A stretch of DNA of 64,000 nt. Origin: Bacteroidales bacterium (GTDB lineage: Bacteria > Bacteroidota > Bacteroidia > Bacteroidales > VadinHA17). The position numbers were made by a program, and so were the translations under genes. The stretch covers positions 11,006-75,005 of the forward strand of contig JAWLEO010000004.1 of assembly GCA_041686075.1 (NCBI GenBank), given 5' to 3'. The notes beneath the pieces were generated by a model. It was not told where the DNA came from. It made no database searches and saw only the letters and a list, made by a program, of their open reading frames with translations. This document shows positions 528 through 25,047 of this stretch, one piece after another (the first letter of the stretch is position 1; the number at the start of each line of letters is the position of its first letter).

Positions 528-1541
528 ATGAGTAATATAAAATTCTTATTAATAATCTGTTTATCAGTTTTTTTAACAATAGTATCCTGTGTTCCCGGTG
601 GTAGGTACAGGACATTGCACGATAAGAGTGTCCAGTACATGAATGAGAGGGATAATTTGAAAACTGAAAACCTTGACCTGTCTATGAGGAACAGGGAGAT
701 GGCTGCTCAACTTGAATCACTTAAGGAGGACCTGGAAGGTATGGAAGATGAGAGAGAAGAACTCCAGGCAGAAGTTGACAGGGCAAGGGCTCAATACAGT
801 GACATTAACAACAGGTACACTGAACTGCAAAAGGCTCAGGAGGACCTTATAAGGGGTAATGTTGCTGAAACCAGGCGTTTGCTCCGCGAACTGCAGGAGG
901 CCCAGGAAAACCTCCAGAACAAGGAAAACCTTATGAAGCAACTGGAGATGAATATGGAGGCTAAAAGAGCGTCCCTGGACGAGTTGTCATACGAACTGGA
1001 ACAAAGGAATGCAAGGCTCACGGAGCTGGAACAGATACTTGAGGAACAAACCAGGATTGTCAAGGACCTGAAGACCAAGGTGTCGGATGCATTATATGGT
1101 TTTGAAGGCGAAGGATTAACGGTATCAATGAAGAACGGTAAGGTATACGTTTCACTTGAGGAAAAACTGCTGTTCCGGACAGGCAGTTACAACATTGACG
1201 CCAATGGCCGTAATGCACTGAGAAAACTGGCCACTGTATTGAAGAACAATCCTGATATACAGATAACTATTGAAGGACATACCGATGACGTACCATATAT
1301 TTCATCAGGTGGCCCCATCCAGGATAACTGGGATTTAAGTGTGAAAAGGGCAACAACCGTTGTCAGGACATTGCTTGACGGCTCGGGTATTAATCCTGCA
1401 AGGCTGACAGCTGCCGGAAGGGGAGAACATTTACCTGTTGATGATAATAAGACTGCCGAGGCAAGAAGGAGAAACAGGCGTACCGAAATTATACTGACTC
1501 CCGACCTGAGTGAGCTTTACAGGGTTATTGAGAGTTATTAG
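528..1541 (+). CDS. OmpA/MotB-family lipoprotein with long coiled-coil segment
   Basis: ORF 291..1541. The internal ATG at 528 gives MSNIKFLLIICLSVFLTIVSC, a lipoprotein-type signal. A heptad-like E/L/Q/R-rich region follows, then an OmpA_C-like domain (TIEGHTDDVPY, NWDLSVKRA, NRRTEIIL). Confidence 0.85.
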   Translation: MSNIKFLLIICLSVFLTIVSCVPGGRYRTLHDKSVQYMNERDNLKTENLDLSMRNREMAAQLESLKEDLEGMEDEREELQAEVDRARAQYSDINNRYTELQKAQEDLIRGNVAETRRLLRELQEAQENLQNKENLMKQLEMNMEAKRASLDELSYELEQRNARLTELEQILEEQTRIVKDLKTKVSDALYGFEGEGLTVSMKNGKVYVSLEEKLLFRTGSYNIDANGRNALRKLATVLKNNPDIQITIEGHTDDVPYISSGGPIQDNWDLSVKRATTVVRTLLDGSGINPARLTAAGRGEHLPVDDNKTAEARRRNRRTEIILTPDLSELYRVIESY

Positions 1542-3063
1542 AAGTGTATTCGCCTAACCGGGCATTTATACGTGACAGGGCTTCCTTAATGCTTTCTTCA
1601 GGCCTGACATAATTATCAGTACCCCAGAATTCCCTGTCATAGCTGTTTATTGTTTCAGAAAAGATTGAATGCAGGGGTGCACGTTCCTCCCTTGCAAACC
1701 TTTGCACGTTTACAGTGTCAATATTGGTAATTGCCATTTCAAAGAAGATGGTGTAGGTATTGCCAAATATCCTGTTTTTCTTCCTGGCATAGAATTCAAG
1801 GTCACCCCTTACGTGGTTAAGATAATAGCGATTGTTAATATGACGGTAATTAATACGATACTGTGCTGACCTTATTTTTACATTAAAACCTTTGGCCGAA
1901 CGTTGAATAAAAGACCTGTCAAGTTTGTTAATGTAATCCTGGTTAATCTCAAAGTCAAAGGCATGAATGCCATAGTCTTGTGTGTTTATGTATATTACGC
2001 CTTCGGGCAGGGCTGTTTCATCAAGACCTTCTTTCTGTTCAAACTCAATAACAAAGGCAGCTTCATCGCCAATGTTTATAATGTTGGTCATCCTGTAATT
2101 GTAATCAGGAAAGCTTTCTTCCTTGAGAAAATCAAAGGTATTCTTCACACCATCGAGTAAAAGACATCCGTCCAGGCCCGACCTCAGCTTGAAAGTCAAT
2201 GTGTCTGACTGGTCGAGGTTATTTATTTTGCGACTTTTATAAATTTTTACCTGGTCATTAAACAGGGTGGCAGTGTATGAACTTTTATATAATTCGAGAA
2301 CTGCTTCCGAGTATTCCAGTAATTTCCTCTTCTTAGATACCGATTCGCGGTAGAAAGCAGTCATATGAGCAGGGTTGTTGCCATAGTTTTCGGGTATCCT
2401 TTCCTTTGCATTCCGGATCAGTTCAAGTGGATCCCTGTTTCTGATTATTACTTCAGGTATGGGAACATACATCCTGGTCAGGCTAATATTGAAGTAACTA
2501 TTAATCGCCTGCTTAACAGGGATCCTGCGACTGAAGAAGCCGAGGTAGGATACAACAAGTGTATCATCCAGGAAATCTTTGCTCAATTTAAGGTTATACT
2601 TCCCCTCATAATTTGACACAGTGCCTTTACCCTTTGACATTACACCTATTGTGGCATAAGGCAGGGGATCGCCACTGGCGGCATCTGTCACCTCACCTGA
2701 GAGCCTGTAAACGGCCTCCCTCCCTTCTTCCTTTATCAAAGGAGTGGAGTCACTGACTGACCGGTAGATTATTATGTGATTATCAATGATGGAATAATTC
2801 AGCATTTTGTCATAAAAGATGGTATCAAGAATATCCTTCAGGGATTCATTTTCCATCTTCAGCGTTATTATGCTTTCGGGTTCTATAAGGTCTGTGTCGT
2901 AGGTAAAATGGTAGCCAGTTTCCCGGGATACGGATTTTAAAATTGTTGAAATGCTGACATTATTAAGATTAAAAGAAAATGGAGTTTCAAGAACACTTTC
3001 CTGTGCGAAGGTAAAAGAAGGGCATGTTATAATGAGAATGAATATAACAAGCCTTTTTATCAT
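1525..3063 (-). CDS. secreted STN-domain + CarboxypepD_reg-like protein, lacks TonB-dependent plug/barrel
   Basis: ORF 1525..3096; likely start is MIKRLVIFILIITCPSFTFAQ (ATG at complement 3061-3063). An STN-like segment (NVSISTILKSVSRETGYHFTYDTDL..IIIY) is followed by a carboxypeptidase-regulatory-like segment (LSGEVTDAASGDPLPYATIGV..GTVSNYEGKYNL). The ~300-aa C-terminal domain is shared with 4601..5902. Confidence 0.7.
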   Translation of the reverse strand: MIKRLVIFILIITCPSFTFAQESVLETPFSFNLNNVSISTILKSVSRETGYHFTYDTDLIEPESIITLKMENESLKDILDTIFYDKMLNYSIIDNHIIIYRSVSDSTPLIKEEGREAVYRLSGEVTDAASGDPLPYATIGVMSKGKGTVSNYEGKYNLKLSKDFLDDTLVVSYLGFFSRRIPVKQAINSYFNISLTRMYVPIPEVIIRNRDPLELIRNAKERIPENYGNNPAHMTAFYRESVSKKRKLLEYSEAVLELYKSSYTATLFNDQVKIYKSRKINNLDQSDTLTFKLRSGLDGCLLLDGVKNTFDFLKEESFPDYNYRMTNIINIGDEAAFVIEFEQKEGLDETALPEGVIYINTQDYGIHAFDFEINQDYINKLDRSFIQRSAKGFNVKIRSAQYRINYRHINNRYYLNHVRGDLEFYARKKNRIFGNTYTIFFEMAITNIDTVNVQRFAREERAPLHSIFSETINSYDREFWGTDNYVRPEESIKEALSRINARLGEYTSNNSQ

Positions 3064-3111
3064 AGCATTATATTTGGCATAAGCTAATACATTCATGAAA
3101 TAATTTAACCT

Positions 3112-4053
3112 TTATTTTGTATCCAGGAAATAAATATTCCCCTCTTTATAATATTCAAGGTTAAAAGTAGTACAAATAATACGGATAATTGTTTCAGGTG
3201 ACTGCTTATCAAAAACAGATGTGACTCTCAGATTGTGTATTTCATCATTTTCAATTTCTATGTTGATATTATGAACTTTTTTCAGATCGGAAATCACTTT
3301 CTCCAGGCTATCACCTTCAAATACCAGTACATCGGTTTTCCAGGCCAGGTAGTTTGGGTCGGGGTTAATATTTTTTGAGGTGTGGTTGTCAATTATTGAT
3401 CCCAGATCTCCCGGTTCAAGTGTCACTGAATGGTTTTCTTTATTGCTGAGCCTGACCTTACCTTCAGTGACAAAAACCTCAACTTTGTTATTTTCTGTAT
3501 TTACGTTAAAGGATGTTCCGAGCACTGTAATGTCAGCTTTACCGGCATCAACGGTGAAGGGCCTGGTGGCATCATATTCAACATCAAAAAATGCTTCACC
3601 TTCCAGCTTCACCCGTCTTTCTTGATTGTCAAAGCGGTCAGGATATTCTATTCTCGAATTCCTGTTAAGAAATACCTTACTGCCATCAGGCAGATTAACA
3701 GGGACATTTTTTTGTTCTATTCCTGCACTTATAACATTCGTATTATTTTTTCCAAAGCCATTTGTTCCAATGTATATGCCTGCAAAGCCAAGCCCGACAA
3801 TCAGTATCACAGAAGCAGCTATTCTGAAAACAGTATTATTGAATATCTTCTTCCTCTTGATAAGATTATCTTCTTCAAACCTGTTATAAAGCTTGTTCCA
3901 TGCTTTATCGGTATCGACTTCGGTATTTTTCACTATTTCATCCATTTCCTTCCAGTATTTTTTAGCAGATTGGTTTTGTCCGGAGAGGAACTCATCAAGC
4001 ATAGTCCTTTCCCTATCTTCCATTTTGTCATTATTTTTTTCTCTTTTTCCCAT
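3112..4053 (-). CDS. FecR-family anti-sigma factor
   Basis: 313 aa with one central TM helix (VFRIAASVILIVGLGFAGIYI) and a periplasmic FecR-like beta-rich domain. The start lies 2 nt downstream of the ECF sigma stop. Confidence 0.8.
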   Translation of the reverse strand: MGKREKNNDKMEDRERTMLDEFLSGQNQSAKKYWKEMDEIVKNTEVDTDKAWNKLYNRFEEDNLIKRKKIFNNTVFRIAASVILIVGLGFAGIYIGTNGFGKNNTNVISAGIEQKNVPVNLPDGSKVFLNRNSRIEYPDRFDNQERRVKLEGEAFFDVEYDATRPFTVDAGKADITVLGTSFNVNTENNKVEVFVTEGKVRLSNKENHSVTLEPGDLGSIIDNHTSKNINPDPNYLAWKTDVLVFEGDSLEKVISDLKKVHNINIEIENDEIHNLRVTSVFDKQSPETIIRIICTTFNLEYYKEGNIYFLDTK

Positions 4054-4055
4054 TT

Positions 4056-4589
4056 TTACACTGAAAATTCTTTCCTGAATTCTTTTAACGCCTTACCCAT
4101 ATTTGCTTCAACCGTTTTTATTGAAATTGACAGTTGTTCGGCTATCTCGGCATATTTGAGACCGTCGAAACGGCTCATACAGAAAACTTTTGCACATCGT
4201 TCAGGTAGTTTCTCTATTATCCCGGCTACCTTTTCGTGCATCTCTTTATAGTAGATTTCATGCTCGGGGTCTGCACCGGTGCTTTTGACACTGTCCTTCA
4301 TTTCTTTTTCATGTTTCATTACAACTTTTTTGTGTTCGATAAAATGAAGACACCTGTTATATACAGACCGTAAAAGATAAGCATTCAGAGAACTATTAAT
4401 TTTTATCTTTTTCCTGTCACGCCATAATACATAGAAAAGTTCCTGGACTATCTCTTCAGATATATCCTTGTCTCTCAGTATTGATCTGGCATAATTAACC
4501 AGAGAATTATAGGAGGACCTGAAAAGATTCTCAAATTCCTTGATATCATCCTTTCTGATCCTCCTGATAATTTCTCTATCGGTTACCAT
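4056..4589 (-). CDS. ECF-type RNA polymerase sigma-70 factor
   Basis: 177 aa. Region-2-like FENLFRSSYNSLVNYARSIL and a region-4 HTH, LPERCAKVFCMSRFDGLKYAEIAEQLSISIKTVEANMGKALKEFR. Confidence 0.88.
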   Translation of the reverse strand: MVTDREIIRRIRKDDIKEFENLFRSSYNSLVNYARSILRDKDISEEIVQELFYVLWRDRKKIKINSSLNAYLLRSVYNRCLHFIEHKKVVMKHEKEMKDSVKSTGADPEHEIYYKEMHEKVAGIIEKLPERCAKVFCMSRFDGLKYAEIAEQLSISIKTVEANMGKALKEFRKEFSV

Positions 4590-4600
4590 ATACCTTTCAT

Positions 4601-5902
4601 CTAGTTATCAAATAAATCGCTCCACCTGAGCTTCCGGTTGAGTTTTCTTATTGCGGATTCTATACTCTGGTCGGGTTCAATAACATTGTACTCACCCCAG
4701 AAATCAGGATCTGCAAAAGCACTCAATTGTTCAGTAAAGATATCACCTTTTCTGATTTTTTCACGTGATGCAAATTTTATCACTTCCTCTTCAGTCCTGT
4801 CAGTAATAGCTATTTCTGACATTGTGGTGTAAGTTTTATTAAAGAGTTTTCTCTTCCAATTACACTTAAACTCCACTTCAGCACGTGCATATGCAAAGTA
4901 GTACTTACCATCCTGTTCACGGAACTTAACCCTGTAGCTTGCTGCTTCGGGAGTTACTTTCATCCCGAGTGGTTTTTTCCTCACGAAAATTGATGCTGCC
5001 AGGTCTTCATCTTCAAGATTAATGCTGAATTCCGCTTCAGTTATGGCATAAGTGTTCATCTCGACATAAAATTTTCCGAGGAATAAGGGTACTTCTACAT
5101 TTGGACGCTGCTTAAATTCAATTACATAATGAGGCTTTTCATCAATTGTTATGATATTGTCAAGTTTATATTCATATGAGTCCATGATATCATAAGTGAG
5201 TATCCCATATGTATTCTTGGCGATATCAAGCTGTAAAGTTGTAACCGGTCCACCCTGCAGCCGGAACAATACTGTGTCAATCTTTGAGACATCAATATTT
5301 TTCCTTCCTTTGTAGACTTTTGTTGCATCAAACCTGAAAACACTGTTATAGGGAGCTTTAAAGACTTCTATCACAGCTTCAGCTATTGATACGTAATTCC
5401 TGTTTTTCTTGATGGTTTCACGGTAGAAACCTGTCATAAGGTTAGGTACCAAGGCATAATTATCAGGTATATTACTTATTACCTTTTCAATGATTTCTGT
5501 AGGGACTACAGGTTTAACGGTAACTTCCTGTATGGGTATTGTTGCCTGCCTTAGCTCTATAACATTTTCTTCCTCACCGGTTGAGAGATTTACAAGGGGG
5601 ATCTCTTTATTCTTGTAACCTACATACGTTACCTCTATATAGGGATTTTCTACCTTAACGTCTATTTTAAGAAGAAAATCGCCGTCGAGGTTAGACACTG
5701 TTGCCACATTTGTACCTTTCAGGGCAACGGTTGCAAATATCAGGGGGTCACCTGTTTCGTAATCCACTATCTTACCCCTGATTGTAGTAAAAGGTTGTTG
5801 ATCCTGGTCTGATATCTGAGCTTTAACTTCTGCATTGGCACTGAAAGAAGAAATAATACCAAGGATCAAAACAATCATTGTAATATTGATAAATCTTTTC
5901 AT
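4601..5902 (-). CDS. secreted CarboxypepD_reg-like protein, paralog of 1525..3063 without the STN domain
   Basis: Signal peptide MKRFINITMIVLILGIISSFSANA, then IRGKIVDYETGDPLIFATVAL..TVSNLDGDFLL. It aligns with the other paralog by eye (MTGFYRETIKKNRNYVSIAEAVIEVFKAPY vs MTAFYRESVSKKRKLLEYSEAVLELYKSSY; FWGEYNVIEPDQSIESAI vs FWGTDNYVRPEESIKEAL). Confidence 0.7.
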   Translation of the reverse strand: MKRFINITMIVLILGIISSFSANAEVKAQISDQDQQPFTTIRGKIVDYETGDPLIFATVALKGTNVATVSNLDGDFLLKIDVKVENPYIEVTYVGYKNKEIPLVNLSTGEEENVIELRQATIPIQEVTVKPVVPTEIIEKVISNIPDNYALVPNLMTGFYRETIKKNRNYVSIAEAVIEVFKAPYNSVFRFDATKVYKGRKNIDVSKIDTVLFRLQGGPVTTLQLDIAKNTYGILTYDIMDSYEYKLDNIITIDEKPHYVIEFKQRPNVEVPLFLGKFYVEMNTYAITEAEFSINLEDEDLAASIFVRKKPLGMKVTPEAASYRVKFREQDGKYYFAYARAEVEFKCNWKRKLFNKTYTTMSEIAITDRTEEEVIKFASREKIRKGDIFTEQLSAFADPDFWGEYNVIEPDQSIESAIRKLNRKLRWSDLFDN

Positions 5903-6139
5903 GACTTTTAATTTTTTTTAAAATTTTTTAATGAATTCTCATTGTTCGTTTCTCACCTGTATGACCGGTAATATTGCTTTTACCCTATATAAAATATAAG
6001 CTTATTGTCATAGTAACTTTATAACAAGATAAATGCCTATTATGTTTTATTATAAAATAATAACGAATTTGCCCGTGACTTATCAGGCTGGGGAGGGTGT
6101 CATTAAAACACTCACCGGTATTCTTGAGGATGGAAGGTT

Positions 6140-7672: not shown

Positions 7673-9082
7673 ATGAAAAACACATACTTTAATCTGGTCG
7701 AACAAACTTACTATTTCCCTCAGGAGGGATTTGATTTGATTGACGACTACCTTACTTTCTATGGTGTTTCACTTAAGTACCTGATTCAAAAGCATGGTAC
7801 TCCTTTCAGGTTGATCTACCTGCCAAGGATAGGAGATCAAATAAAGAGAGCCAGGAACCTCTTTAACAGGGCAATAAAAAGCACCGATTACAATGGAGCC
7901 TACCATTTCTGCTATTGTACTAAATGTTGTCATTTCCATCATGTTGTAAGTGCTGCACTCAAACATAACGTTAATCTTGAAACTTCCTCTTCGTTCGACA
8001 TTGACCTTATTGAAAAATTATATATGAAAGGAGAGATTGATAAGAAAAGGATTATTATACATAATGGTTATAAAAGTCCCGAATACATAGGGAAGATATT
8101 GAGATTGCAGAAAAGTGGATTTATTAATTCTATAATCATCCTTGACAGCGAGGAAGAGCTTAGCCGTATAATGGACCAGGTAGGGGACACTAAAGTACAG
8201 GTTGGCATTCGTATGGCCATTGATGAGGAACCCCAATCGGCTTATTACACCTCAAGGCTGGGATTACCTTATTCTGATATAATAAATTTTTATGTTAACA
8301 AGATTAAGAATAATCCAAGGGTGGAAATGAAAATGCTGCATTTCTTCGTTGATTCAGGGATCAAGGACAGCCTGTACTACTGGGGTGAACTCCAGAAAGC
8401 GCTCAAGCTGTATGTTGATTTAAAAAAGGAATCAAAAAGCCTTGATTCAATAAATCTCGGCGGAGGTTTTCCTATAAGGAACCACCTTGGCTTTGAATAT
8501 GATTATGAATACATGATACTGGAAATAGTACGTAATATTAAAGAAACATGCACTAATGCAGCCATCAGGGATCCGGATATTTATACCGAATTTGGAAAGT
8601 ACACCGTGGGAGAAAGCGGGGCTATCATTTTCAAAGTTTTGGAACAAAAACAACAGAATGACAATGAACTGTGGTATATAGTTGATAACAGTCTTATGAA
8701 CACCATCCCCGATGCATGGTCCATGCATGAAAAATTCATACTTCTGCCGGTTAATAAATGGCATAATGAATATACACGGGTGAACATTGGTGGTATCAGT
8801 TGCGATCATTCGGATTACTATAATTCGGAAGACTTTAACCAGCAGATATTATTACCTAAATATAAAAAGGAAGAAAAGGAACCCCTTTATATCGGCTTTT
8901 TCCACACCGGTGCTTACCAGGATTCAATAAGTGGCTACGGGGGGATTAAACATTGCCTGATACCTGCACCCAAACATGTTATAATTGACAGGGACAGCAC
9001 AGGAAATTTCGTTGATTATGTTTACAGGAATGAACAATCAGTAGATGATATGCTGAATATTTTGGGTTATCTTAGCGTATAA
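7673..9082 (+). CDS. type III PLP-dependent decarboxylase, short arginine-decarboxylase-like
   Basis: 469 aa. Candidate PLP-lysine context YCTKCC, glycine loop NLGGGFPI, and GGISCDHSD (G-x-x-CD-x-x-D substrate loop of Orn/DAP/Arg decarboxylases). Its stop overlaps the start of the ureohydrolase gene (TAATG). Confidence 0.7.
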   Translation: MKNTYFNLVEQTYYFPQEGFDLIDDYLTFYGVSLKYLIQKHGTPFRLIYLPRIGDQIKRARNLFNRAIKSTDYNGAYHFCYCTKCCHFHHVVSAALKHNVNLETSSSFDIDLIEKLYMKGEIDKKRIIIHNGYKSPEYIGKILRLQKSGFINSIIILDSEEELSRIMDQVGDTKVQVGIRMAIDEEPQSAYYTSRLGLPYSDIINFYVNKIKNNPRVEMKMLHFFVDSGIKDSLYYWGELQKALKLYVDLKKESKSLDSINLGGGFPIRNHLGFEYDYEYMILEIVRNIKETCTNAAIRDPDIYTEFGKYTVGESGAIIFKVLEQKQQNDNELWYIVDNSLMNTIPDAWSMHEKFILLPVNKWHNEYTRVNIGGISCDHSDYYNSEDFNQQILLPKYKKEEKEPLYIGFFHTGAYQDSISGYGGIKHCLIPAPKHVIIDRDSTGNFVDYVYRNEQSVDDMLNILGYLSV

Positions 9083-9927
9083 TGAAAACATTTGGTAAGA
9101 TAGAGGAAAAATTTGCCGGCTTTGAAAGTTCGGATATTTTATTGCAGTCTTTACCTTACGATGGTACCACCACCTGGGGTAAGGGCTCTGACAGAGCATT
9201 TCAAGCTTTCCTGGAGGCGTCAAACCATCTCGAGCTATACGATATTGAAACGGGGTCAGAAGTTTTCAGAAAGGGTATTCACATATTGCCGGAGATAGCC
9301 CTGGAAGGTAATCCTGAAGAGGTATCCATAAAAATATATGAACGAACAAAGCACCTGTTGGAAATTGATAAGTTGTTGACTTTTATAGGAGGAGAGCATT
9401 CTGTCAGTATTGGTATCATAAAGGCCTTCGCTGAGAAATTCAGTGGCCTGAGTGTTTTACAGTTGGATGCACATACCGATCTCAGGCCTGAATATATGGG
9501 TTCAGTATATAATCACGCCTGCGCCTTGCATGAGGCATCAAAAAACACCGATCTTATACAGGTGGGAATAAGAAGCATGGATATCAGTGAACTGGAGTAT
9601 TTTGACCGTTCGAAATGTATCTTCGCCGAAGAGATGCAGGATAATGATTACTGGGTTGAAAGGGTTGTTTCACTTTTAAATGATGATGTTTATATCACTG
9701 TGGACATGGATGTATTCGATCCTTCCGTCATGCCTGCAACAGGTACACCGGAACCGGGTGGTATGACATGGTACCAGGTTCTTAAGCTCTTGAAGAAAGT
9801 ATTTACAGCGAGCAATGTCAGGGGATTCGATATCGTGGAACTTGCGCCAATGGAAAGCATGAAGGCCCCGGCTTTCATGATGGTTAAATTATATTATAAA
9901 ATGTTAAGCTATAAATACTATGGCTAA
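9082..9927 (+). CDS. speB: agmatinase (ureohydrolase family)
   Basis: 281 aa. Mn-binding ureohydrolase motifs GGEHSVS, LDAHTDL, DMDVFDPS. Sits between the decarboxylase and the DHS-like gene. Confidence 0.8.
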   Translation: MKTFGKIEEKFAGFESSDILLQSLPYDGTTTWGKGSDRAFQAFLEASNHLELYDIETGSEVFRKGIHILPEIALEGNPEEVSIKIYERTKHLLEIDKLLTFIGGEHSVSIGIIKAFAEKFSGLSVLQLDAHTDLRPEYMGSVYNHACALHEASKNTDLIQVGIRSMDISELEYFDRSKCIFAEEMQDNDYWVERVVSLLNDDVYITVDMDVFDPSVMPATGTPEPGGMTWYQVLKLLKKVFTASNVRGFDIVELAPMESMKAPAFMMVKLYYKMLSYKYYG

Positions 9928-10891
9928 GGGTAGAATAAGTACATTTATGGATGAGCATTTCAGGCATTTCAATTCCGCCAGCTTGCTTGATGCCGCGAGG
10001 GCATACAATGCACAGCTTGAAAATGGTGCCAGGATGATGATCACACTTGCCGGGGCGATGAGTACGGCAGAGCTGGGTAAATCACTCGCTGAAATGATCA
10101 GGGAAGATAAGGTGCATATCCTTACATGTACAGGGGCAAATCTTGAAGAAGATGTCTTTAACCTTGTTGCACACAGTCATTATAAAAGAATACCGGAATA
10201 CAGGAACCTTAGTGACGACCAGGAAAGCAAGCTGCTGAAAAATCATTATAACAGGGTTACCGATACATGCATACCGGAAGAAGAAGCAATGAGGAGAATA
10301 GAGAAGCACCTGATGAAAGCATGGGAGAAGGCCAGTAAGGAGGGTGAGAGATATTTCCCCCATGAATATTTTTATGATATTCTGAAGAGTGGTGAACTAA
10401 AGGAATATTATGAGATTGATCCCCGGGATTCATGGTTGCTTGCTGCAGCCGAAAAAAATCTGCCCGTAATAGTGCCGGGATGGGAGGATTCGACATGTGG
10501 CAATTTTTTCGCATCTCATTGCATACGGGGCTTATATGACACATCAATTATTCGGTCAGGGATAGAATATATGATGTTCCTTGCTGAATGGTACCAAAAG
10601 AATTCCGCCGATGGCGTTGGCTTTTTCCAGATAGGAGGTGGCATAGCCGGTGATTTCCCTGTATGTGTTGTTCCCATGTTACACCAGGATCTTCAACTTG
10701 AAGATATTCCGGTATGGTCTTATTTTTGCCAGATAAGTGATTCAACTACCAGTTATGGTTCCTATTCGGGTGCTGTGCCCAACGAGAAAATAACATGGGG
10801 TAAGCTGTCACCGGAAACACCCAGGTTTATTATTGAATCAGATGCTACGATAGTGGCCCCGCTTATGTTTGCATATATCCTTGGCTGGTAA
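9920..10891 (+). CDS. deoxyhypusine synthase-like protein (probable homospermidine synthase)
   Basis: 323 aa. IGGGIAGDF and ITWGKL resemble the GGG..KH and SWGK (catalytic Lys) motifs of DHS-family enzymes. 8-nt overlap with the agmatinase stop. Confidence 0.75.
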   Translation: MAKGRISTFMDEHFRHFNSASLLDAARAYNAQLENGARMMITLAGAMSTAELGKSLAEMIREDKVHILTCTGANLEEDVFNLVAHSHYKRIPEYRNLSDDQESKLLKNHYNRVTDTCIPEEEAMRRIEKHLMKAWEKASKEGERYFPHEYFYDILKSGELKEYYEIDPRDSWLLAAAEKNLPVIVPGWEDSTCGNFFASHCIRGLYDTSIIRSGIEYMMFLAEWYQKNSADGVGFFQIGGGIAGDFPVCVVPMLHQDLQLEDIPVWSYFCQISDSTTSYGSYSGAVPNEKITWGKLSPETPRFIIESDATIVAPLMFAYILGW

Positions 10892-19591: not shown

Positions 19592-20590
19592 ATGCTTTTA
19601 AGAATTTACAGGGGAGTTGGCCCGGGGACCATCATGGCCATAATAATAAGCCTTGTGCTGGTATGGTTGCAACCACTGTTGCATCCTGTTGAACCGTCAC
19701 TATACCACAATATTAATCCTGCACCTTTGTATTCCCTGATTATGGCTCCTTTTAAGGGGAAGGCTTTAGCCGGGATAATTTTTTCAATGCTTATGGTTCT
19801 TTTAACAGCCATCTACCTGGTTAATTTCAACACCCGTTTGTTTTTTATTAATGAAAGAACATTCCTGCCCGCTTCACTTTATGTTCTCCTGAGCGGGTAT
19901 ATATACAGCAACCAGGTGCTCAACCCGGTATTGCCGGCCTCCCTTCTTCTTCTTGTATCTATCAACAGAATAATCGTTTCTTACAGGAAACCCGGAATTG
20001 CCTATAATCTTTTTGATGCTTCCCTGTTGATTGGGATTGCTGCCTTGATTTATACTAATATTATTTGGTTTTACCTGCTGATAATTATCGGAATAGGCTT
20101 ATTCCGCTCCGTTAATTTCAGGGAAATCTTAATTTCTCTGGTGGGATTGATCACTCCCTTTATAATATTATACTCCTTTTATTACTTTATGGGCCGGGAC
20201 ATCACATGGCTGAATCAATTTTTCATTAAGAGCATAATAACTGATGTGCGTGATTTCTACTGGTCGCCTGAATTTATAATAATATCATCTATTAACGCAT
20301 TCATTTTCATAGTGGCCTTATTACACCTGTGGAGCGTTTTCAATACCAAAAAAGTAAGGTCAAGGAAAATATTTTCACTTTTTACCTGGATGTTAATAAT
20401 CACCGTGCTTATTTATCTTATAATACCGTCAGCATCCGTTGAAATGATGTATGCTTTTCTTATCCCGCTGGTTTATTTCCTTACTCATTATCTTGTTATG
20501 ATGAGGAATAAAAAAATAGCAAATTATTTATTTGCTATTATTTTTCTGTCGGTATTATTCATGCAATTAAACAGGGCAATAATTATTTAA
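19592..20590 (+). CDS. polytopic membrane protein, unknown function
   Basis: 332 aa with ~9-10 hydrophobic helices. Starts 4 nt after purD. No recognisable catalytic motif. Confidence 0.6.
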   Translation: MLLRIYRGVGPGTIMAIIISLVLVWLQPLLHPVEPSLYHNINPAPLYSLIMAPFKGKALAGIIFSMLMVLLTAIYLVNFNTRLFFINERTFLPASLYVLLSGYIYSNQVLNPVLPASLLLLVSINRIIVSYRKPGIAYNLFDASLLIGIAALIYTNIIWFYLLIIIGIGLFRSVNFREILISLVGLITPFIILYSFYYFMGRDITWLNQFFIKSIITDVRDFYWSPEFIIISSINAFIFIVALLHLWSVFNTKKVRSRKIFSLFTWMLIITVLIYLIIPSASVEMMYAFLIPLVYFLTHYLVMMRNKKIANYLFAIIFLSVLFMQLNRAIII

Positions 20591-21026: not shown

Positions 21027-21944
21027 TTAAAATGATACTATTTTATTTCTGATCTCTTCTGTTTTCTGTATTATACCCTCCAGCACATCATCACTGAATA
21101 TTACAGTGCTTTCTTCATTTTGCACTACGATGAGCCTTCCATCTTTTTTTTCAACTGTTTCAGGCTCGCCGGGGGTGTAAGTTATATCAACATCTGAATA
21201 GTTACGCTTTAAATGCTCCAGCTCATTGTAAAGCTCGCTGTATTCATCACTGGTCTCATTGTAGGGTAGGAGCAGCATCAGCAGGTCATTAAGTATGATT
21301 TTTTGTTCACCTATCCTGTTTTTCAGATCTTTGTGTGGATAATCCTTTACTATCTCGCATGCAAGGTATTGGGCCTCCAGCCATACACCTGTTATCATTA
21401 AAGCCGACAGATAGCCCCGGTCGTTATCCCGCAGGTATTTATCGATCTGGTTATACGAGCGAACTGAAAGGAAGAGGAGTGAGTCAATATTACTCCTGTT
21501 TATGGCAAGGTTTTTAAGAGTCTCGAAATCAAAAAATTGGCCAACTCGTAAGTCTTCTGCAAGCTTGTTTATGGTTGATAGTGTTTCAACTGCACTTCCT
21601 GTCTTTTCATATATATTAAGGTAGCCAAGGTCAGCACCGTAAATTCCCAGGCGAAGAGCTTTCTGAAAACTGGTGCTAAGGCTTCCTGCTTCCTCGATTG
21701 ATGCCAGGTGTTTAGCAGTAAAAGGTACTTCCAGGTCAATCAGCAGAGATGCCATTTCAACCGGGGAGCCGATATTCTGGACAATATCGTCTATAGCTTC
21801 CTGGCTTAATTTTTCAGCCTCCTTAACGGGGATGGAATCAGATTCAGGGAAGATAAATTCTGATTCTTTTTTACCCCTGTTCTTACAGGAGAAAGTAAGA
21901 ACCAGAATTATCAAAATTGTGAAAACGGAGAGAACTTTTTTCAT
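21027..21944 (-). CDS. hypothetical lipoprotein (helical)
   Basis: 305 aa. Signal and lipobox-like MKKVLSVFTILIILVLTFSC. 73 nt downstream of the ABC gene on the same strand. Confidence 0.6.
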   Translation of the reverse strand: MKKVLSVFTILIILVLTFSCKNRGKKESEFIFPESDSIPVKEAEKLSQEAIDDIVQNIGSPVEMASLLIDLEVPFTAKHLASIEEAGSLSTSFQKALRLGIYGADLGYLNIYEKTGSAVETLSTINKLAEDLRVGQFFDFETLKNLAINRSNIDSLLFLSVRSYNQIDKYLRDNDRGYLSALMITGVWLEAQYLACEIVKDYPHKDLKNRIGEQKIILNDLLMLLLPYNETSDEYSELYNELEHLKRNYSDVDITYTPGEPETVEKKDGRLIVVQNEESTVIFSDDVLEGIIQKTEEIRNKIVSF

Positions 21945-22017: not shown

Positions 22018-25000
22018 TTATTTTTTTGATAAAGAGTTGACTATTCGCTCCAGAATATTGTAATACAAAAGAACATACAATATCAATGACATGAGCCATA
22101 CAAATATCATATTAAAAGTATAGGTGTCAAATCTTATACCCAGCGATACTTTGGTAGGGGCAAAAAAATGGCTCCTGAAAGCAGGGAATTCATCACCTGT
22201 GGGATCACGGTAAATCGGGTCAAAATTTTGAACAAGCCTGTTTTTGTACTCCAGTATCTTATTTTTTTCATATATCTTCCTGACAATCTCTTCCAGCCGG
22301 TCATTGTGATACTGGTTATATAATTCATCCAGCCTTTCCCGGTTGGCACTTATGAATTTGTCTTTCCTGATATCCGCAGAATTACTCATTCTCAGGAATA
22401 TCCTGTTTACAGAGTCAATATATTCAGAAAGTCTTTCAGCAACAAGGTTATCGAAATCAGAATAATTTATTTTACCCAGGTCATTAAATTCGTACAGGTT
22501 TTCATTTTGGGAGAGTTCGGAAATTTCATTACTCAATAGAGACAGTTTGGATGGATTATCCTCGGTCAGCTGTCCACTCCTGTAGTGCAAGACTGTTGTG
22601 TTAAGGGCATTCTCCAGTTCAGGCAAACGGAATATGGAATTGTAATCAGCCACACTGATGGTTTTATTTATGTCGTAAACAAGCATGTCATATTTATTAT
22701 CTTTGAACTGTGTAACCATCAGGGCTTCATAAGTCCACTTCGTAGGCATTATTTCAGCTATCCAGGGAACCTTATCAACACTGCTCACATTACGGTTCAG
22801 TTTATCAAAGGGGAACATTGAACCGCTGAGTACCATCATTGGTATTATAAGGATTGGCACTACAATGTATATGGTGATTGCAGAATTAAAAGCATCCGAG
22901 ACATTGAGGCCCAGGATATTTGCAAATGTTGCAGTGGTAAAAAAAGCAAACCAGTAATGGAAATATAGTTCTTTTATTCCCAGTATAGGATTTGCCACAA
23001 TGATGAACAACAGGGCCTGTATGGCGGATATCGAAAATAAAATAAGGACTTTTGCAGCAAGATAACTACCCTTGCTAAGGTTTAGGAATTGTTCCCTGTG
23101 ACGTATCTTTTTATCTTTAAAGATTTCCTCTGCACTTGTTATGAGACCGAGAAAAAGAGCAACGATGAGGCAAACAAATATATATATCGGGATATTCTCA
23201 TTTTCCCTGAAAATATAAACACTTGAGCCGGGATCAACTATATATCTTATTATGTATGATAATATGAATCCGAGAACCGGTGCCTCGAGGAGGGTGAGAA
23301 GCAAATACTGCCTGTTGGATATTTTGCTGCCCAGGTCCCTGCGGATAAAGATCTGAAATTGTTTCAGGAGGTTTGGCCTTTTAAGGTTCGACCTTGGTCT
23401 GGTTTTTACCTCACGCAGGGGGACAGAAGTGTGCGATTCATTGTACCTCTCAGCCCATTCGGTGGGTGAACGTTTTCTGACACCCGTATATCTCCCGTAT
23501 TCATCTACCACTTCTGTTTCAATGATGTTAAAGATAGCTTCCGGGTTTATGTTGCCACATGTTGGGCATTCACCTATATGGCTTTCTATTTGTTCATCAA
23601 GTCTTTTAAAATATATAAGCGCCTCAATTGGATTTCCGTAGTAAATCATTTCACCACCTTCGTCAAGGATTATTATCCTGTCAAATATCTTATATATTTC
23701 TGAAGATGGTTGGTGTATTGATGTAAATAAGAGTTTGCCTTTTAAGGTCAAATCCCTCAATAAAGACATTACATTCTCGGAATCCCTGGATGATAATCCC
23801 GTTGTGGGTTCATCAACGAAAAGTATCGATGGTTCGCGTATTAGTTCCAGTGCTATGTTCAATCTTTTTCTCTGACCGCCGCTGATTACCTTTTTAAGTG
23901 TGGAGCCCACTTTAAGATCCCTTTTATTGTATAGCCCCAGGGACCTGAGCATCCTGTCTACCTTTAATGTTATTTCATTACTGTCCAGGTCATTAAAACA
24001 AAGGGATGCTGTATAATAAAGGTTTTCGAAGACTGTGAGGTCTTCCATAAGCATGTCTTCCTGGGGCACGTAACCAATTATACCATCCGGTAGGCGGGAT
24101 TTATTATTAAGATCGATACCATTTATTTTCACTGAACCACTGGACGGTTGATTAATCCCAATGAGAAGATTGAGGAGAGTGGTTTTACCCGCTCCGCTAC
24201 CTCCCATTATGCCAATAAGGTTGCCCTCCCTTTCAGCAATGTTTACATTATGAATCCCTGTTTGGCCCCCGGGAAATTTATAAACCAGGTTCTGGGTTAC
24301 CAGGCTTATCTTGTTGAATGACCTTCTCGATAAATAATGGGATGATATATCGCTGTAATATATAGGCTGGCCGTGTTGGTACCTCAGTGCGCTTCCCTTG
24401 GCCAGTGTATATATTTTACCCCTGTCAACGGGCAGGCCATTAAGGTATAGCTGCTTATCAGAGTAATGCTTAATAAAATAAAGGTCCACACTACTTATCC
24501 ACAGTATAACAAGGAGATTGGTTTCTGTATCTTTCTTTTTAGTATTGATACCAGGATCCGGGGAACGCGCAGGATGCTTAAGAACCAGTAATGAACTGTC
24601 ATGGGGGTCCTCATCGGAAGTATGTTTAATAAAACGTTCTATACTTCTGAATTCGTCAGGTAATATTCTGAATACTTCTGCTACAGTATTGATGATATTC
24701 ATTCTCTGAAGGGTGAACCTTTTATCGGCATTTACCAATTCATAAAGCCGCATTACCACAACCACTTTTTGAGCCTGGTTGAGGGTTCGGTTAATTTGCC
24801 TGCATATATTGAATATCTTAACGGAATCTTTTACGGAGGGTGGTTTGTTTTCTACATAAGAAGCATCATCCATTAACGGCCCGGCATTACTGTCGAAGAG
24901 CTTCAGGTATTCATTTACTGATTCATGGCTTAGTTGCGTTTCAAGGAAGTTCACAACATATTCCCTTTCGCTCGATAGCATACCTCCATCCTGCTTAATG

Positions 25001-25047
25001 ATCAGGGCAAAAAGTTGCATCAGCGCTTTCAGGATCTCTTCGCTCAT
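22018..25047 (-). CDS. ABCG/White-type ABC transporter (fused ATPase + ABC-2 permease) with long N- and C-terminal extensions
   Basis: 1009 aa. Walker A GGSGAGKTT, signature ISGGQRKRLNIALELI, Walker B ILFVDEPTTGLS, H-loop SIHQPS. About 6 TM helices are followed by a ~270-aa extension ending in one more TM. The N-terminal ~270 aa include a TerB-like helical segment (LFALIIKQDGGMLSSEREYV). Confidence 0.8.
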   Translation of the reverse strand: MSEEILKALMQLFALIIKQDGGMLSSEREYVVNFLETQLSHESVNEYLKLFDSNAGPLMDDASYVENKPPSVKDSVKIFNICRQINRTLNQAQKVVVVMRLYELVNADKRFTLQRMNIINTVAEVFRILPDEFRSIERFIKHTSDEDPHDSSLLVLKHPARSPDPGINTKKKDTETNLLVILWISSVDLYFIKHYSDKQLYLNGLPVDRGKIYTLAKGSALRYQHGQPIYYSDISSHYLSRRSFNKISLVTQNLVYKFPGGQTGIHNVNIAEREGNLIGIMGGSGAGKTTLLNLLIGINQPSSGSVKINGIDLNNKSRLPDGIIGYVPQEDMLMEDLTVFENLYYTASLCFNDLDSNEITLKVDRMLRSLGLYNKRDLKVGSTLKKVISGGQRKRLNIALELIREPSILFVDEPTTGLSSRDSENVMSLLRDLTLKGKLLFTSIHQPSSEIYKIFDRIIILDEGGEMIYYGNPIEALIYFKRLDEQIESHIGECPTCGNINPEAIFNIIETEVVDEYGRYTGVRKRSPTEWAERYNESHTSVPLREVKTRPRSNLKRPNLLKQFQIFIRRDLGSKISNRQYLLLTLLEAPVLGFILSYIIRYIVDPGSSVYIFRENENIPIYIFVCLIVALFLGLITSAEEIFKDKKIRHREQFLNLSKGSYLAAKVLILFSISAIQALLFIIVANPILGIKELYFHYWFAFFTTATFANILGLNVSDAFNSAITIYIVVPILIIPMMVLSGSMFPFDKLNRNVSSVDKVPWIAEIMPTKWTYEALMVTQFKDNKYDMLVYDINKTISVADYNSIFRLPELENALNTTVLHYRSGQLTEDNPSKLSLLSNEISELSQNENLYEFNDLGKINYSDFDNLVAERLSEYIDSVNRIFLRMSNSADIRKDKFISANRERLDELYNQYHNDRLEEIVRKIYEKNKILEYKNRLVQNFDPIYRDPTGDEFPAFRSHFFAPTKVSLGIRFDTYTFNMIFVWLMSLILYVLLYYNILERIVNSLSKK

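Follow-up and report, generated by a model that had tools for sequence, protein, structure and literature searches.

The window analyzed here, a 64-kb stretch of DNA from an uncultured Bacteroidales bacterium, contains a minus-strand operon in which trans-envelope signaling is seemingly split from transport. The protein encoded by its last gene (B) appears to keep the full periplasmic signaling head of SusC, namely the STN (signaling) domain, the NTE and the TonB box, and the place of the SusC plug and 22-strand barrel would be taken by a LolA/RseB-like half-barrel. In the reading that we prefer, which we hold with about as much belief as doubt, B would be a periplasmic, barrel-less transducer of cell-surface signaling (CSS) whose ligand is a hydrophobic or amphipathic molecule of the envelope, and its paralog A would be the output of a self-contained, auto-regulated cassette. 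Such an arrangement is not a new category, because the barrel-less VreA of the Pseudomonas PUMA3 system is already known.

Operon Layout, Sigma Factor and Anti-Sigma Factor

The operon is comprised of four co-directional minus-strand ORFs in the order A, ECF sigma factor, FecR and B, as in the sequence-only reading, whose ECF/FecR module with an STN-bearing partner and an STN-less paralog was recovered with all of its ORFs and domains and at the coordinates that it had given. Gene A (4601..5902) encodes the STN-less paralog of 433 aa and is separated by 11 nt from the sigma factor gene (4056..4589, 177 aa), which is followed after 2 nt by the gene for a FecR-type anti-sigma factor (3112..4053, 313 aa). 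These two gaps agree with the earlier values, and the third, previously given as 48 nt, depends on the start chosen for gene B (1525..3096): it is 48 nt from the alternative start at Met12 (nt 3063) and 15 nt from the first ATG (nt 3096). The first ATG yields a protein of 523 aa, a length common to close homologs, and mature B is identical from either start. The genes are real, since each search recovered homologs by the hundreds or thousands, the best of them at an E-value of 0.

The sigma factor scores 168 bits against TIGR02985 (cutoff 126), the Bacteroidetes-type FecI-like subfamily, and contains Sigma70_r2 and Sigma70_r4_2 domains. The anti-sigma factor comprises a cytoplasmic N-terminus (residues 1-72), a single TM helix recognized as a hydrophobic segment (residues 75-97), a periplasmic FecR domain (residues 116-201; Pfam FecR, E 4e-20) and an STN-like FecR_C domain (residues 243-307, nt 3133-3327; E 8e-12). 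A self-cleavage-type GT motif is located at residues 179-180 (nt 3514-3519), and its surrounding pattern, h.h.GT.F.h, is kept by 81 of the 82 orthologs; its role is assigned after PMC11637429.

The Predicted Periplasmic Signaling Head of Protein B

In protein B, a signal peptide precedes the STN domain, which is followed by a SusC-type NTE Ig domain and by a domain of 300 aa that also occurs in A; over 870 homologs have lengths of 513-529 aa. The full-length AlphaFold2 model has a pLDDT of 84 and a pTM of 0.81. As had been proposed, this FecR partner carries STN without plug or barrel: profile searches of B found neither Plug nor TonB_dep_Rec, even at E<=10, and the fold predicted behind the signaling head is LolA-like.

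The signal peptide (residues 1-31, 3004..3096) is the single N-terminal hydrophobic stretch of B. Signal peptidase I is predicted to cut after ...TFA, leaving Gln32 exposed, which conforms to the Q-rule of Bacteroidota (PMC5837995). This glutamine is at least 90% conserved, and [ACGST]-Q occupies the cleavage position in 267 of 292 B-type proteins; only 1 of the 89 “CQ” cases fits a lipobox. Because B has an SPase-I Q-rule site and lacks a lipobox, a T9SS C-terminal domain and a beta-signal, it is most likely located in the periplasm, and the suggestion that it is a sensor for a surface cue found no support.

The STN domain extends over residues 39-112 (2761..2982). Its PF07660 match in B (residues 62-112) reaches 28.4 bits, which is exactly the Pfam cutoff, and the assignment outlived both profile and structural tests: this borderline call is secured by matches to PF07660 in 47 of 58 family members (best E-value 7.6e-11), by the beta-alpha-beta fold of the region in the AlphaFold model, and by Foldseek matches to the PilQ N0 domain, the InvG secretin and the FpvA signaling domain. 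A poorly conserved linker of 16 residues (113-128, 18% identity) leads to the NTE (residues 129-206, 2479..2712; PF13715, E 6e-14). CarbopepD_reg_2 matches residues 132-216 with 52 bits, the domain aligns with positions 3-81 of the TIGR04056 model, and Foldseek superposes it on the SusCdex NTE (9hfj) with a TM-score of 0.86 and an rmsd of 1.8 Å. Thus, the “regulatory-like Ig domain” of the earlier description is indeed an Ig domain, more exactly a SusC NTE that is followed by a strongly conserved TonB-box-like motif.

This motif, IPEVIIR (residues 213-219, 2440..2460), lies where the NTE is joined to the C-terminal domain by a flexible stretch that is modeled with lower confidence. No other part of B is as well conserved (69% identity); I213, P214, E215 and I218 are invariant among 58 sequences, and the B-type consensus is [IL]-[PQ]-E(96%)-[VI]-[IV]-[IV]-R (n = 222). 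The motif aligns to LNEVVVS of the solved TonB-dependent transporter (TBDT) 9gbc, and in BT1763 the TonB box, VDEVVV, is likewise found immediately behind the NTE (PMC7782687). By its sequence and position, the B motif occupies the place of the SusC TonB box and may bind TonB. A point against the preferred reading is that a TonB box on a protein that has no outer-membrane anchor offers no obvious route for the transmission of force.

The Shared C-Terminal Domain

The C-terminal domain of B (residues 222-523, 1528..2433) had been described without a function. It has no sequence match in Pfam, NCBIfam or PDB, and at the sequence level it is not a member of the LolA or RseB families, but it is LolA/RseB-like at the level of fold. 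Modeled alone by AlphaFold2 (pLDDT 83, pTM 0.83), it contains two short helices and 10-11 long antiparallel strands, and its tail carries a conserved D-x-x-F-W-G. The Foldseek matches that reach probability 1.0 all belong to LolA-superfamily or lipid-transfer barrels; among them are RseB (2p4b; E 2.4e-6), LolA3, NE2245, DUF1329 and a lipoprotein-sorting protein. Despite this probability, TM-scores to LolA/RseB folds are 0.3-0.4 with an rmsd of about 10 Å, a remote likeness that weighs against the preferred reading; the predicted structure is a soluble, LolA/RseB-like open half-barrel. Between A and B, 29 columns of the domain do not vary. Most of the invariant residues are polar or carry a charge (R, E, E, K, D, K, R, K, D, D, R, D), an unusual makeup for a cavity that binds lipid only; this too weighs against the preferred reading and could mean that the ligand is polar or that the domain contacts another protein.

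A very different arrangement would be a compact or split outer-membrane barrel, or a plug variant, in which, for example, 11 strands from A and 11 from B build one 22-strand barrel and B remains a TonB-dependent transducer. The count of about 11 long beta-strands per domain, the TonB box before each domain and the constant company of the two genes fit such a barrel. We nevertheless consider it very improbable. The structure prediction is neither a compact barrel nor a plug, the monomer is modeled as a compact domain, and outer-membrane barrels score no more than 0.3 in Foldseek probability, with a TM-score of about 0.13, against 1.0 for LolA-type folds. The domain is also rich in charge (28% of residues, with charges on both faces of 6 of 10 strands) and predicted soluble, neither the A nor the B family ends in the aromatic residue of a beta-signal, and Plug and TonB_dep_Rec signals are absent as noted above.

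Gene A and the Promoter Candidate

Proteins A and B are 32% identical along an alignment of 397 aa (E 6e-72), in keeping with the proposal of a secreted partner of about 510 aa that has its C-terminal domain in common with the upstream paralog. Behind its signal peptide, A has an Ig domain of the SusC NTE type (CarbopepD_reg_2, residues 41-129, E 1e-15), a TonB-box-like motif and a LolA-like domain; a Pfam search of A found no STN. The motif, IQEVTVK (residues 124-130, 5513..5533), follows the A-type consensus I-P-I-x-E(96%)-[VI]-[VI]-[IV]-K-P (n = 141), and in A and B alike the form [IL]xE[VI][IV][IV][RK] comes directly after the NTE. A is presumed to be the output or effector of the operon because it is, besides B, the sole non-regulatory gene.

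A putative ECF-dependent promoter, found as a conserved dyad by enumeration over 75 upstream regions, is located at 5960..5988 (minus strand) and ends 57 nt 5′ of the ATG of A. It comprises a -35 box, ATAGGGTA, and a -10 box, GGTCATA, separated here by a non-conserved spacer of 14 nt; over all loci the pattern is ATAGGGTA-N14-16-GGTCWTA. The dyad lies at an equal position in 66 of 80 loci while the spacer sequence is free to vary, and the -35 box is retained in distant cassettes too. A looser form of the pattern has one other match in the window, at 21263 within an ORF, which is consistent with chance (0.41 expected). From its shape and conservation, this promoter may be used by the sigma factor of the operon, and its position upstream of A suggests that the cassette is probably auto-regulated.

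Conservation of the Cassette

Some 85 loci have the complete order A-sigma-FecR-B, with unrelated flanks and with identities that fall to about 31%. It is the same in all 80 reference-genome loci, as far as their contigs reach, and in four more cassettes at about 31-35% identity, again with unrelated flanks; A heads the cassette in every locus examined, and all carriers seen are uncultured MAGs. No TBDT and no further ORF with an NTE or STN is found anywhere in the 64-kb window or within ±7 kb of the approximately 85 cassettes; the earlier phrase “signaling uncoupled from transport” is therefore fair. The family of the C-terminal domain numbers 1,208 representatives of 50%-identity clusters, with uniform lengths (median 516 aa), intact reading frames and many invariant columns. 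The match of the N-terminal half of B (STN, NTE and TonB box) to the head of a SusC transducer might also be expected of a SusC transducer in decay, stripped of its barrel and without function, or of an annotation artefact. The breadth of the family, its intact frames and the persistence of the cassette at low identity, together with a C-terminal domain that does not derive from plug or barrel sequence, speak against this idea, which the conservation data effectively refute.

Identities are 44% for FecR and 47% for B, vs. 62% for the sigma factor and 61% for A; FecR and B thus diverge in parallel and at higher rates than the other two proteins. These rates bear on a reading in which A and B are mere outputs of the sigma factor, acting as periplasmic LolA-like chaperones or carriers, and FecR senses its signal otherwise; the STN of B would then not control FecR and would serve, for example, oligomerization or contact with a protease. 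STN domains contact numerous partners, among them proteases and other STN domains (PMC11637429); in PUMA3, the part that VreA plays in signaling is unsettled and VreI does not induce vreA (PMC2729926); and the invariant columns of the A and B C-terminal domains suggest the same biochemical activity. We regard this reading as quite unlikely, given the matched and elevated rates of FecR and B, the confinement of STN in every cassette to the gene directly downstream of FecR, the retention by FecR of its STN-like FecR_C docking domain, and the binding of STN-containing N-terminal domains of Bacteroides SusC proteins to the C-terminal domains of their cognate anti-sigma factors (PMC2709373).

Proposed Mechanism

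If B is a barrel-less transducer, as we prefer, its STN at rest would lie on the STN-like FecR_C domain and shield FecR from periplasmic proteases, much as the STN of FoxA guards the anti-sigma factor FoxR against Prc (PMC11637429). A ligand, for which a lipid, LPS or a lipoprotein is a candidate, would bind the LolA-like domain of B and, possibly together with TonB at the TonB box, alter or break the STN-FecR contact. Similarly, lipid signals free the LolA-like MucB/RseB from the anti-sigma factors MucA/RseA (PMC7400510). FecR would then be lost by regulated proteolysis, setting the sigma factor free to transcribe the operon from its promoter and thereby to supply more A, a presumed non-signaling effector that shares the ligand-binding domain and TonB box of B. 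In this scheme, the contact of STN with FecR, the binding of TonB, the kind of ligand, the way in which regulation runs and the function of A are inferred.

Comparison with Known Systems

Among the closest parallels are the SusC/FecR/ECF systems of Bacteroides (e.g., BT1042/BT1052/BT1053), of which FecA/FecR/FecI and FoxA/FoxR/FoxI are the proteobacterial equivalents. Both they and the cassette combine a TIGR02985 sigma factor, a FecR with FecR_C and GT motif, and a partner with STN, the SusC-specific NTE and a TonB-box-like motif directly behind it, encoded by tightly linked, probably auto-regulated genes. In contrast, the cassette has no plug, 22-strand barrel, SusD, PUL or nearby TBDT; its sensor is predicted to be a LolA-like domain that is soluble, the leading gene always encodes an STN-less paralog, and sensing and effector roles are apparently split over two paralogs instead of being united in one transporter.

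In the RseB/RseA/sigma-E (MucB/MucA/AlgU) module, a periplasmic protein of LolA-like, lipid-binding fold is likewise bound to the periplasmic portion of the anti-sigma factor of an ECF system and controls the proteolysis of that factor, with release by lipid or LPS signals. B differs in that it has no sequence homology to RseB (the MucB_RseB Pfam is not matched), its anti-sigma factor is FecR-type and not RseA-type, the link to that factor would be the STN and not the RseB C-terminal domain, and it bears an NTE and a TonB box in addition. LolA/LolB lipoprotein carriers, with LolA paralogs of Bacteroidota such as P. gingivalis LolA3 (9tp6), and DUF1329 (4z48) share the open antiparallel half-barrel with helices and are the best structural matches of the C-terminal domain, within the low TM-scores given above; that domain is longer (about 300 vs. 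180-240 aa), has many invariant charged residues and is fused to STN, NTE and TonB box, and no Lol genes surround the cassette. Dma, also a Bacteroidota-specific and non-canonical link between an ECF anti-sigma factor and the outer envelope (PMC10927553), was rejected as a relative: its one polypeptide chain includes an outer-membrane barrel of 8 strands, its sigma partner is of the ECF21 group, and it has no FecR, STN, NTE or LolA-like parts.

DUF5686 (PF18939) also begins with a CarbopepD_reg_2 Ig domain, and the region behind it is weakly matched by some relatives of A and B (E about 1e-5, profile positions 120-251); P0338 has a precomputed match. These matches reach about 24 bits, under the 39.2-bit cutoff, and cover about 130 of 669 profile positions, so that the large C-terminal part of DUF5686 is missing here; A and B of the window have no DUF5686 match even at E<=10. 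This sub-threshold likeness to the N-terminal third of a longer protein hints at related domains with added C-terminal modules and would suit a B that is a periplasmic relay adaptor. Its LolA-like domain, perhaps aided by A, would then bind an outer-membrane protein or lipoprotein that is encoded elsewhere and is the true sensor, and the signal reported by the cassette would still be an extracellular or surface cue. Lipoprotein acyl chains are ligands of LolA-like folds, and a TonB box is mechanically most sensible on a protein kept at the outer membrane. Just such a relay was proposed in the original VreA model for a barrel-less STN protein (PMC2729926). We consider it possible but on the unlikely side, as no candidate partner is conserved beside the cassette (an OmpA-like lipoprotein gene adjoins it in the close clade only and is missing at distant cassettes), TBDTs are absent from the vicinity of the loci, and none of the top 150 family representatives exceeds 543 aa.

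VreA itself, in the VreA/VreI/VreR system (PUMA3) of Pseudomonas aeruginosa, is a small STN “receptor” without a beta-barrel that is mostly soluble and periplasmic (PMC2729926), and it is the only described precedent that we found for barrel-less CSS; the sequence-only reading had not mentioned it. VreA belongs to a different phylum and has no sequence relationship to B beyond STN: it is a protein of 238 aa in which STN is joined to a TolA/TonB-C-terminal-like domain, with no NTE, LolA-like domain or canonical TonB box after STN, and its genes are ordered vreA-vreI-vreR, with no paralog. In a sense the two proteins are mirror images, since VreA resembles TonB's C-terminal domain and B bears a TonB box.

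Organization of the cassette and its regulatory proteins

Four tightly packed open reading frames (ORFs) lie on the minus strand, as the sequence-only reading had described: gene A (4601-5902, 433 aa), an ECF sigma factor (4056-4589, 177 aa), a FecR anti-sigma factor (3112-4053, 313 aa), and gene B (1525-3096, 523 aa for the longest ORF; the start at 3063 in that reading is Met12). The gaps between them are 11 nt, 2 nt, and 15 or 48 nt, the last depending on which start of B is used. Neither the sigma factor nor FecR departs from the norm of its family. The former scores 168.3 bits against TIGR02985 (Sig70_bacteroi1; NCBIfam cutoff 126.4) and contains Sigma70_r2 and Sigma70_r4_2 domains (Pfam); its assignment to the sigma_PG0214 equivalog was rejected (92.9 bits vs. 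130). FecR carries PF04773 (FecR; E 4e-20) and PF16344 (FecR_C; E 8e-12), and its one hydrophobic segment (residues 73-98) indicates a single-pass protein, with residues 1-72 predicted to be cytoplasmic and the FecR and STN-like C-terminal FecR_C domains periplasmic. A Gly-Thr motif, the mark of self-cleaving anti-sigma factors of cell-surface signaling (CSS) systems, occurs as VLGTSFNV at residues 176-183 and is kept in 81 of 82 orthologs; this putative self-cleavage site fits the CSS anti-sigma definition, the site being defined as in PMC11637429.

Pfam identified CarbopepD_reg_2 in both A and B, and STN in B only. The two proteins are paralogs, with 32% identity (E 6e-72) spanning the Ig domain and the ~300 C-terminal residues, so that the C-terminal domain described earlier as common to them (the C-domain) is indeed shared.

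A SusC-type signaling head without plug or barrel

The STN domain of B (PF07660) scores 28.4 bits, exactly at the cutoff. This borderline call is solid at the family level, because 47 of 58 B homologs match PF07660 (best E 7.6e-11) and the modeled STN fold matches secretin N0 and FpvA signaling domains in Foldseek; the STN assignment made from the sequence alone therefore survives both profile and fold comparison. The accompanying proposal that this partner of FecR lacks a plug and a barrel is likewise borne out. Neither Plug (PF07715) nor TonB_dep_Rec was detected by Pfam in A or B even at E<=10, no Pfam match to a 22-strand outer-membrane barrel (PF00593/TIGR04056) was obtained for B, which has only 523 aa, and B covers TIGR04056 only at model positions 3-81 of 981. 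Since the two defining features, plug and barrel, both fail, B is not a TonB-dependent transducer, though it probably signals like one.

The middle domain of B had been read as a regulatory-like Ig domain, but its identity and the TonB-box-like motif adjoining it had been missed. This domain, to which the match at TIGR04056 positions 3-81 belongs, is the N-terminal extension (NTE) of SusC-type proteins, and its model superposes on the solved NTE of SusCdex (9hfj) with a TM of 0.86 and an rmsd of 1.8 A (Foldseek). Six residues beyond the NTE lies IPEVIIR (residues 213-219), which aligns with the LNEVVVS TonB box of a solved Bacteroidota TonB-dependent transporter (TBDT), 9gbc. The experimentally validated TonB box of BT1763 (VDEVVV) is flexible and lies directly beyond the NTE (PMC7782687). 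The consensus of the motif is [IL]-[PQ]-E(96%)-[VI]-[IV]-[IV]-R in 222 B-type sequences and I-x-E(96%)-[VI]-[VI]-[IV]-K-P in 141 A-type sequences. No other stretch of B is as conserved as this motif, whose identity of 69% compares with 56% in the C-domain, 51% in the NTE, 42% in the STN domain, and 18% in the STN-NTE linker; judged from its sequence, the motif may bind TonB. Thus composed of an STN domain, an NTE, a putative TonB box, and a LolA-like domain, B is in effect a SusC transducer in which the plug and barrel have been replaced.

In B, the STN domain (residues 39-112) stands ahead of the NTE (residues 129-206; both within 2479-2982 of the window), and TIGR04056 starts with the NTE, contiguous with the plug. 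For STN-bearing SusCs it is stated that "the NTE precedes the STN in all cases" (PMC7782687); either this wording is loose or the B family has the opposite order.

Predicted fold of the C-terminal domain

Searches of Pfam, NCBIfam, and PDB sequences gave no match to the C-domain; with a profile, the PDB sequences yielded nothing meaningful, only a casein kinase at E 0.1. AlphaFold2 modeled full-length B with a pLDDT of 84 and a pTM of 0.81, and the C-domain alone with a pLDDT of 83 and a pTM of 0.83. In the models the domain is built of 10-11 long antiparallel strands and a pair of short helices, and it ends in a conserved tail. When the C-domain was compared with the PDB by Foldseek, all matches with a probability of 1.0 were LolA-superfamily half-barrels or eukaryotic lipid-transfer barrels: DUF1329 (4z48; E 7.5e-8), a lipoprotein-sorting protein (3bk5), NE2245 (3buu), E. 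coli RseB (2p4b; E 2.4e-6, TM 0.24-0.28), P. gingivalis LolA3 (9tp6), and MTP, ApoB, and vitellogenin. The model accordingly falls in the LolA-superfamily fold class, an open antiparallel half-barrel of ~11 strands with helices in or against the cavity; only the fold class and not family membership is claimed, because the similarity is remote (TM 0.3-0.4). None of the window proteins matched the LolA, LolA_like, MucB_RseB, or DUF1329 profiles (Pfam/NCBIfam) at E<=10.

The sequence-only reading had considered that the C-domain might turn out to be a compact barrel or plug variant of TonB-dependent receptors, and structure prediction gave a LolA-like fold instead of an outer-membrane barrel. Charged residues make up 28% of the domain and occupy both faces of 6 of the 10 strands, an aromatic beta-signal residue is absent from the C-terminus in both the A and B families, and the outer-membrane barrels NalP, OccK, and OpdK match with a probability of <=0.3 and a TM of about 0.13 (Foldseek). 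For these reasons the C-domain, in spite of its many strands, is not regarded as a membrane barrel, and a compact or split outer-membrane barrel is highly improbable; a split barrel in which A and B together supply 11 + 11 = 22 strands was rejected in view of the strand charge, the fold matches, and the missing beta-signal.

An alignment of the A and B subfamilies revealed 29 invariant columns in the C-domain (B residues about 237-499), most of them charged or aromatic (FYRE, E..A, K..Y, D, K.RK, DT, D, Y, Q, Y, R, D..W..P). These shared columns suggest that A and B bind the same thing, and they are more reminiscent of a catalytic site or a site of specific binding than of the generic greasy cavity of LolA. 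Because many of the invariant residues are charged, the ligand may not be purely lipidic, and its class is uncertain.

A link of the C-domain to DUF5686 (PF18939) amounts to weak, sub-threshold Pfam matches and nothing more. A few homologs score ~24 bits at positions 120-251 of this profile, for which the gathering cutoff is 39.2 bits over 669 positions, and 7 of 58 homologs match at E<=0.01, below that cutoff, while A and B of the window have no match at E<=10. When a profile of the C-domain alone was used as the query, the top 120 matches showed just the same two architectures (those of A and B) and included no long DUF5686-type protein.

Predicted location of B

B contains one N-terminal hydrophobic segment. 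The Gln that follows its predicted cleavage site is at least 90% conserved, and 267 of 292 B family members have A, C, G, S, or T immediately before it, the pattern that characterizes proteins cleaved by signal peptidase I according to the Bacteroidota Q-rule (PMC5837995). Lipoboxes were recognized in 18 of 284 B-type and 2 of 139 A-type proteins, and the idea that B signal peptides with "C-Q" mark lipoproteins was rejected because only 1 of 89 fits a lipobox. Neither A nor B has a Pfam match to a type IX secretion (T9SS) C-terminal domain (Por_Secre_tail, CHU_C); the C-terminus of B is a helix in the AlphaFold2 model. Given the signal-peptidase-I/Q-rule site and the lack of a lipobox and of a T9SS domain, B is most likely a soluble periplasmic protein, and this predicted location argues against the earlier suggestion that it senses a surface cue.

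Conservation of the cassette and its putative promoter

The C-domain is represented by 1,208 clusters at 50% identity. Among the best 150 representatives, 111 have the STN-NTE-C-domain architecture (median 516 aa) and 24 the NTE-C-domain architecture (median 431 aa), the remainder being fragments; none is longer than 543 aa. Ten distant representatives looked up by cluster proved to be metagenomic proteins with no taxonomic assignment. The SusC periplasmic head (STN domain, NTE, and putative TonB box) is thus set on a soluble LolA/RseB-like domain in a large conserved family, and that B, for all its resemblance to SusC, is merely the decayed relic of one is scarcely credible. One homolog has been named automatically by NCBI as an [quoted passage not shown]

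A scan of reference genomes identified 322 species-level genomes with a relative. The best 80 are all uncultured MAGs, 79 of them labeled Bacteroidota (mostly Bacteroidales, some "Rikenellaceae" or Marinilabiliaceae) and one Chloroflexota. The contig of the latter (JBLNAO010000362.1) encodes a Bacteroidales-type B homolog with 46% identity at 3959-5461 and is probably a binning contaminant and not a case of horizontal transfer.

The gene order A, sigma factor, FecR, B is found in all 80 loci wherever the contig is long enough, and also in four distant cassettes (~31-35% identity) with wholly different flanking genes. Large flanking ORFs at related loci encode penicillin amidase, DPP-IV, a melibiase-like protein, and similar products. 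In the window, an OmpA_C-domain protein with a long coiled coil and a likely lipoprotein signal (LTIVSC) is encoded on the plus strand at 528-1541, convergent with B and overlapping its 3′ end by 17 nt, and this gene adjoins the cassette throughout the close clade. It was rejected as a fifth member, being missing from the distant cassettes and having no promoter dyad upstream. Since the distant cassettes keep the four genes but differ in their flanks, the OmpA-like lipoprotein and frr/pyrH probably represent lineage-specific synteny and not part of the system.

Identity across loci is 44% for FecR and 47% for B, against 62% for the sigma factor and 61% for A. The parallel, faster divergence of FecR and B fits a co-evolving pair of periplasmic sensor and anti-sigma factor. 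An alternative in which A and B are outputs only, and the STN domain exerts no control over FecR, seems doubtful next to this divergence pattern.

A candidate promoter dyad, ATAGGGTA-N14-16-GGTC[AT]TA, lies on the minus strand at 5988-5960, 57 nt before the ATG of gene A. It occurs at the equivalent place in 66 of the 80 loci, with a spacer whose sequence is not conserved, and its -35 box is kept in the distant cassettes. The dyad is shaped like an ECF promoter and may well depend on the sigma factor of the cassette; it has 15 specified bases, and chance matches would swamp regulon members in a metagenome-wide scan. A second loose match in the window (21263, inside the ORF at 21027-21944) is attributed to chance, 0.41 being expected. 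Because the dyad precedes A and the A-sigma and sigma-FecR gaps are too short to hold internal promoters, the operon is probably auto-regulated. Besides B, its only non-regulatory product is A.

Proposed mechanism and relation to known systems

CSS is defined by an outer-membrane TBDT with a double task, the import of its substrate and signaling to an anti-sigma factor of the FecR type, and the CSS systems of Bacteroidota have been described as PUL regulators built around SusC. Against this background, the best explanation of the cassette, to which we would give about an even chance, is that B signals through an STN-FecR contact and that the operon is thereby induced, with A as the effector. 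Three findings from the literature underlie this explanation: in the unstimulated state, FoxA contacts FoxR through its STN domain, which binds the STN-like C-terminal subdomain of FoxR and protects it from Prc (PMC11637429), the N-terminal domains of Bacteroides SusC proteins bind the C-terminal domains of cognate anti-sigma factors (PMC2709373), and the LolA-like MucB/RseB is freed from MucA/RseA by lipid signals (PMC7400510). By analogy, the STN domain of B would dock on FecR_C and stabilize FecR. A hydrophobic or amphipathic envelope ligand filling the LolA-like domain of B, together with TonB acting on the adjacent TonB box, would abolish this protection, whereupon FecR would be degraded and the sigma factor set free. 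The induced operon would then supply more A, which would act as the effector, since it shares the ligand domain and the TonB box with B but is devoid of an STN domain.

A barrel-less periplasmic STN "receptor" has already been published in the form of VreA from the PUMA3 system of P. aeruginosa, a mostly soluble 238-aa protein composed of an STN domain and a TolA/TonB-CTD-like domain (PMC2729926). B resembles VreA in having a signal peptide and an STN domain, in lacking a barrel, in its predicted periplasmic location, and in its position beside an ECF sigma/FecR-type pair. However, the C-terminal domain of B is LolA-like and not TolA/TonB-CTD-like, and B additionally has an NTE, a TonB-box-like motif, and an obligatory paralog. 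B is therefore analogous to VreA, and not homologous beyond the STN domain. In the manner of VreA, B might serve as an adaptor for an unlinked outer-membrane sensor, which we consider rather unlikely; no other NTE, STN, or TBDT ORF was found within +-7 kb of any related locus or in the 64-kb window, and a search of 88 loci and the window for lineage-matched SusC TonB boxes or a DUF5686 protein yielded no further NTE, STN, or C-domain ORF.

The closest functional analogy for the sensor domain of B is RseB/MucB. The latter is a two-domain protein, in which a LolA-like N-domain is followed by an RseA/MucA-binding C-domain, whereas B matches the LolA-like part only, at the fold level, has no MucB_RseB profile match, and is partnered by an anti-sigma factor of FecR type. 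The resemblance is functional and does not imply membership. The Dma dual-membrane anti-sigma family was rejected as a relative on account of its different architecture. A literature search found no published description of an STN domain fused to a LolA-like domain, and for a domain that has had no annotation and occurs in more than 1,200 protein clusters, the present analysis supplies a context as well as a fold.

It is also tempting to speculate, though with little confidence, that A and B are soluble periplasmic clients of TonB, namely LolA-like carriers that use the NTE and TonB box to couple proton-motive force to the handling or extraction of a lipidic envelope component without an outer-membrane transporter, with an STN domain acquired in addition by B reporting carrier occupancy to the FecR/ECF switch. 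TonB would then drive a process in which no TonB-dependent transporter takes part, and Bacteroidota would possess an analogue, built from CSS parts, of the RseB lipid-sensing stress response.

If the inferences on B and A hold, an STN domain and a TonB box can work without a barrel, and the cassette offers a clean natural system in which to separate TonB/NTE signaling from transport, a question open for both SusC and classical CSS. The FecR/ECF switches of Bacteroidota would then serve purposes beyond nutrient uptake, perhaps the monitoring of periplasmic or lipid homeostasis, and the sensor role (B) and effector role (A) would have been split by gene duplication.

Other genes in the window

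ORFs of 305-390 aa at 19592-20590 (plus), 21027-21944 (minus), and 31624-32796 (plus) have no Pfam match at E<=1e-5. On the minus strand, a 1009-aa ORF (22018-25047) combines an N-terminal TerB domain with an ABC ATPase and an ABC-2 permease, and a 469-aa ORF (50053-51462) combines inosine-uridine nucleoside hydrolase and FmdE domains. Lamin Tail Domain repeats occur, together with a weak type IX secretion signal (CHU_C), in an 873-aa protein encoded on the plus strand (35119-37740), which is a probable T9SS cargo. Beside pyrH/frr, three co-directional genes on the plus strand (7673-10891) are syntenic with genes of a related locus (L001) annotated as Orn/Arg decarboxylase, arginase-family (agmatinase-like), and deoxyhypusine-synthase-like proteins; judged from these annotations by synteny, they probably constitute a polyamine operon. 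Finally, a 506-aa ORF on the plus strand (51564-53084) shows an unusual combination, in which the N-terminal region of a NapC/NirT-type multihaem cytochrome c (E 9e-29) is fused to an FGE-sulfatase (SUMF1-like) domain (E 2e-42).
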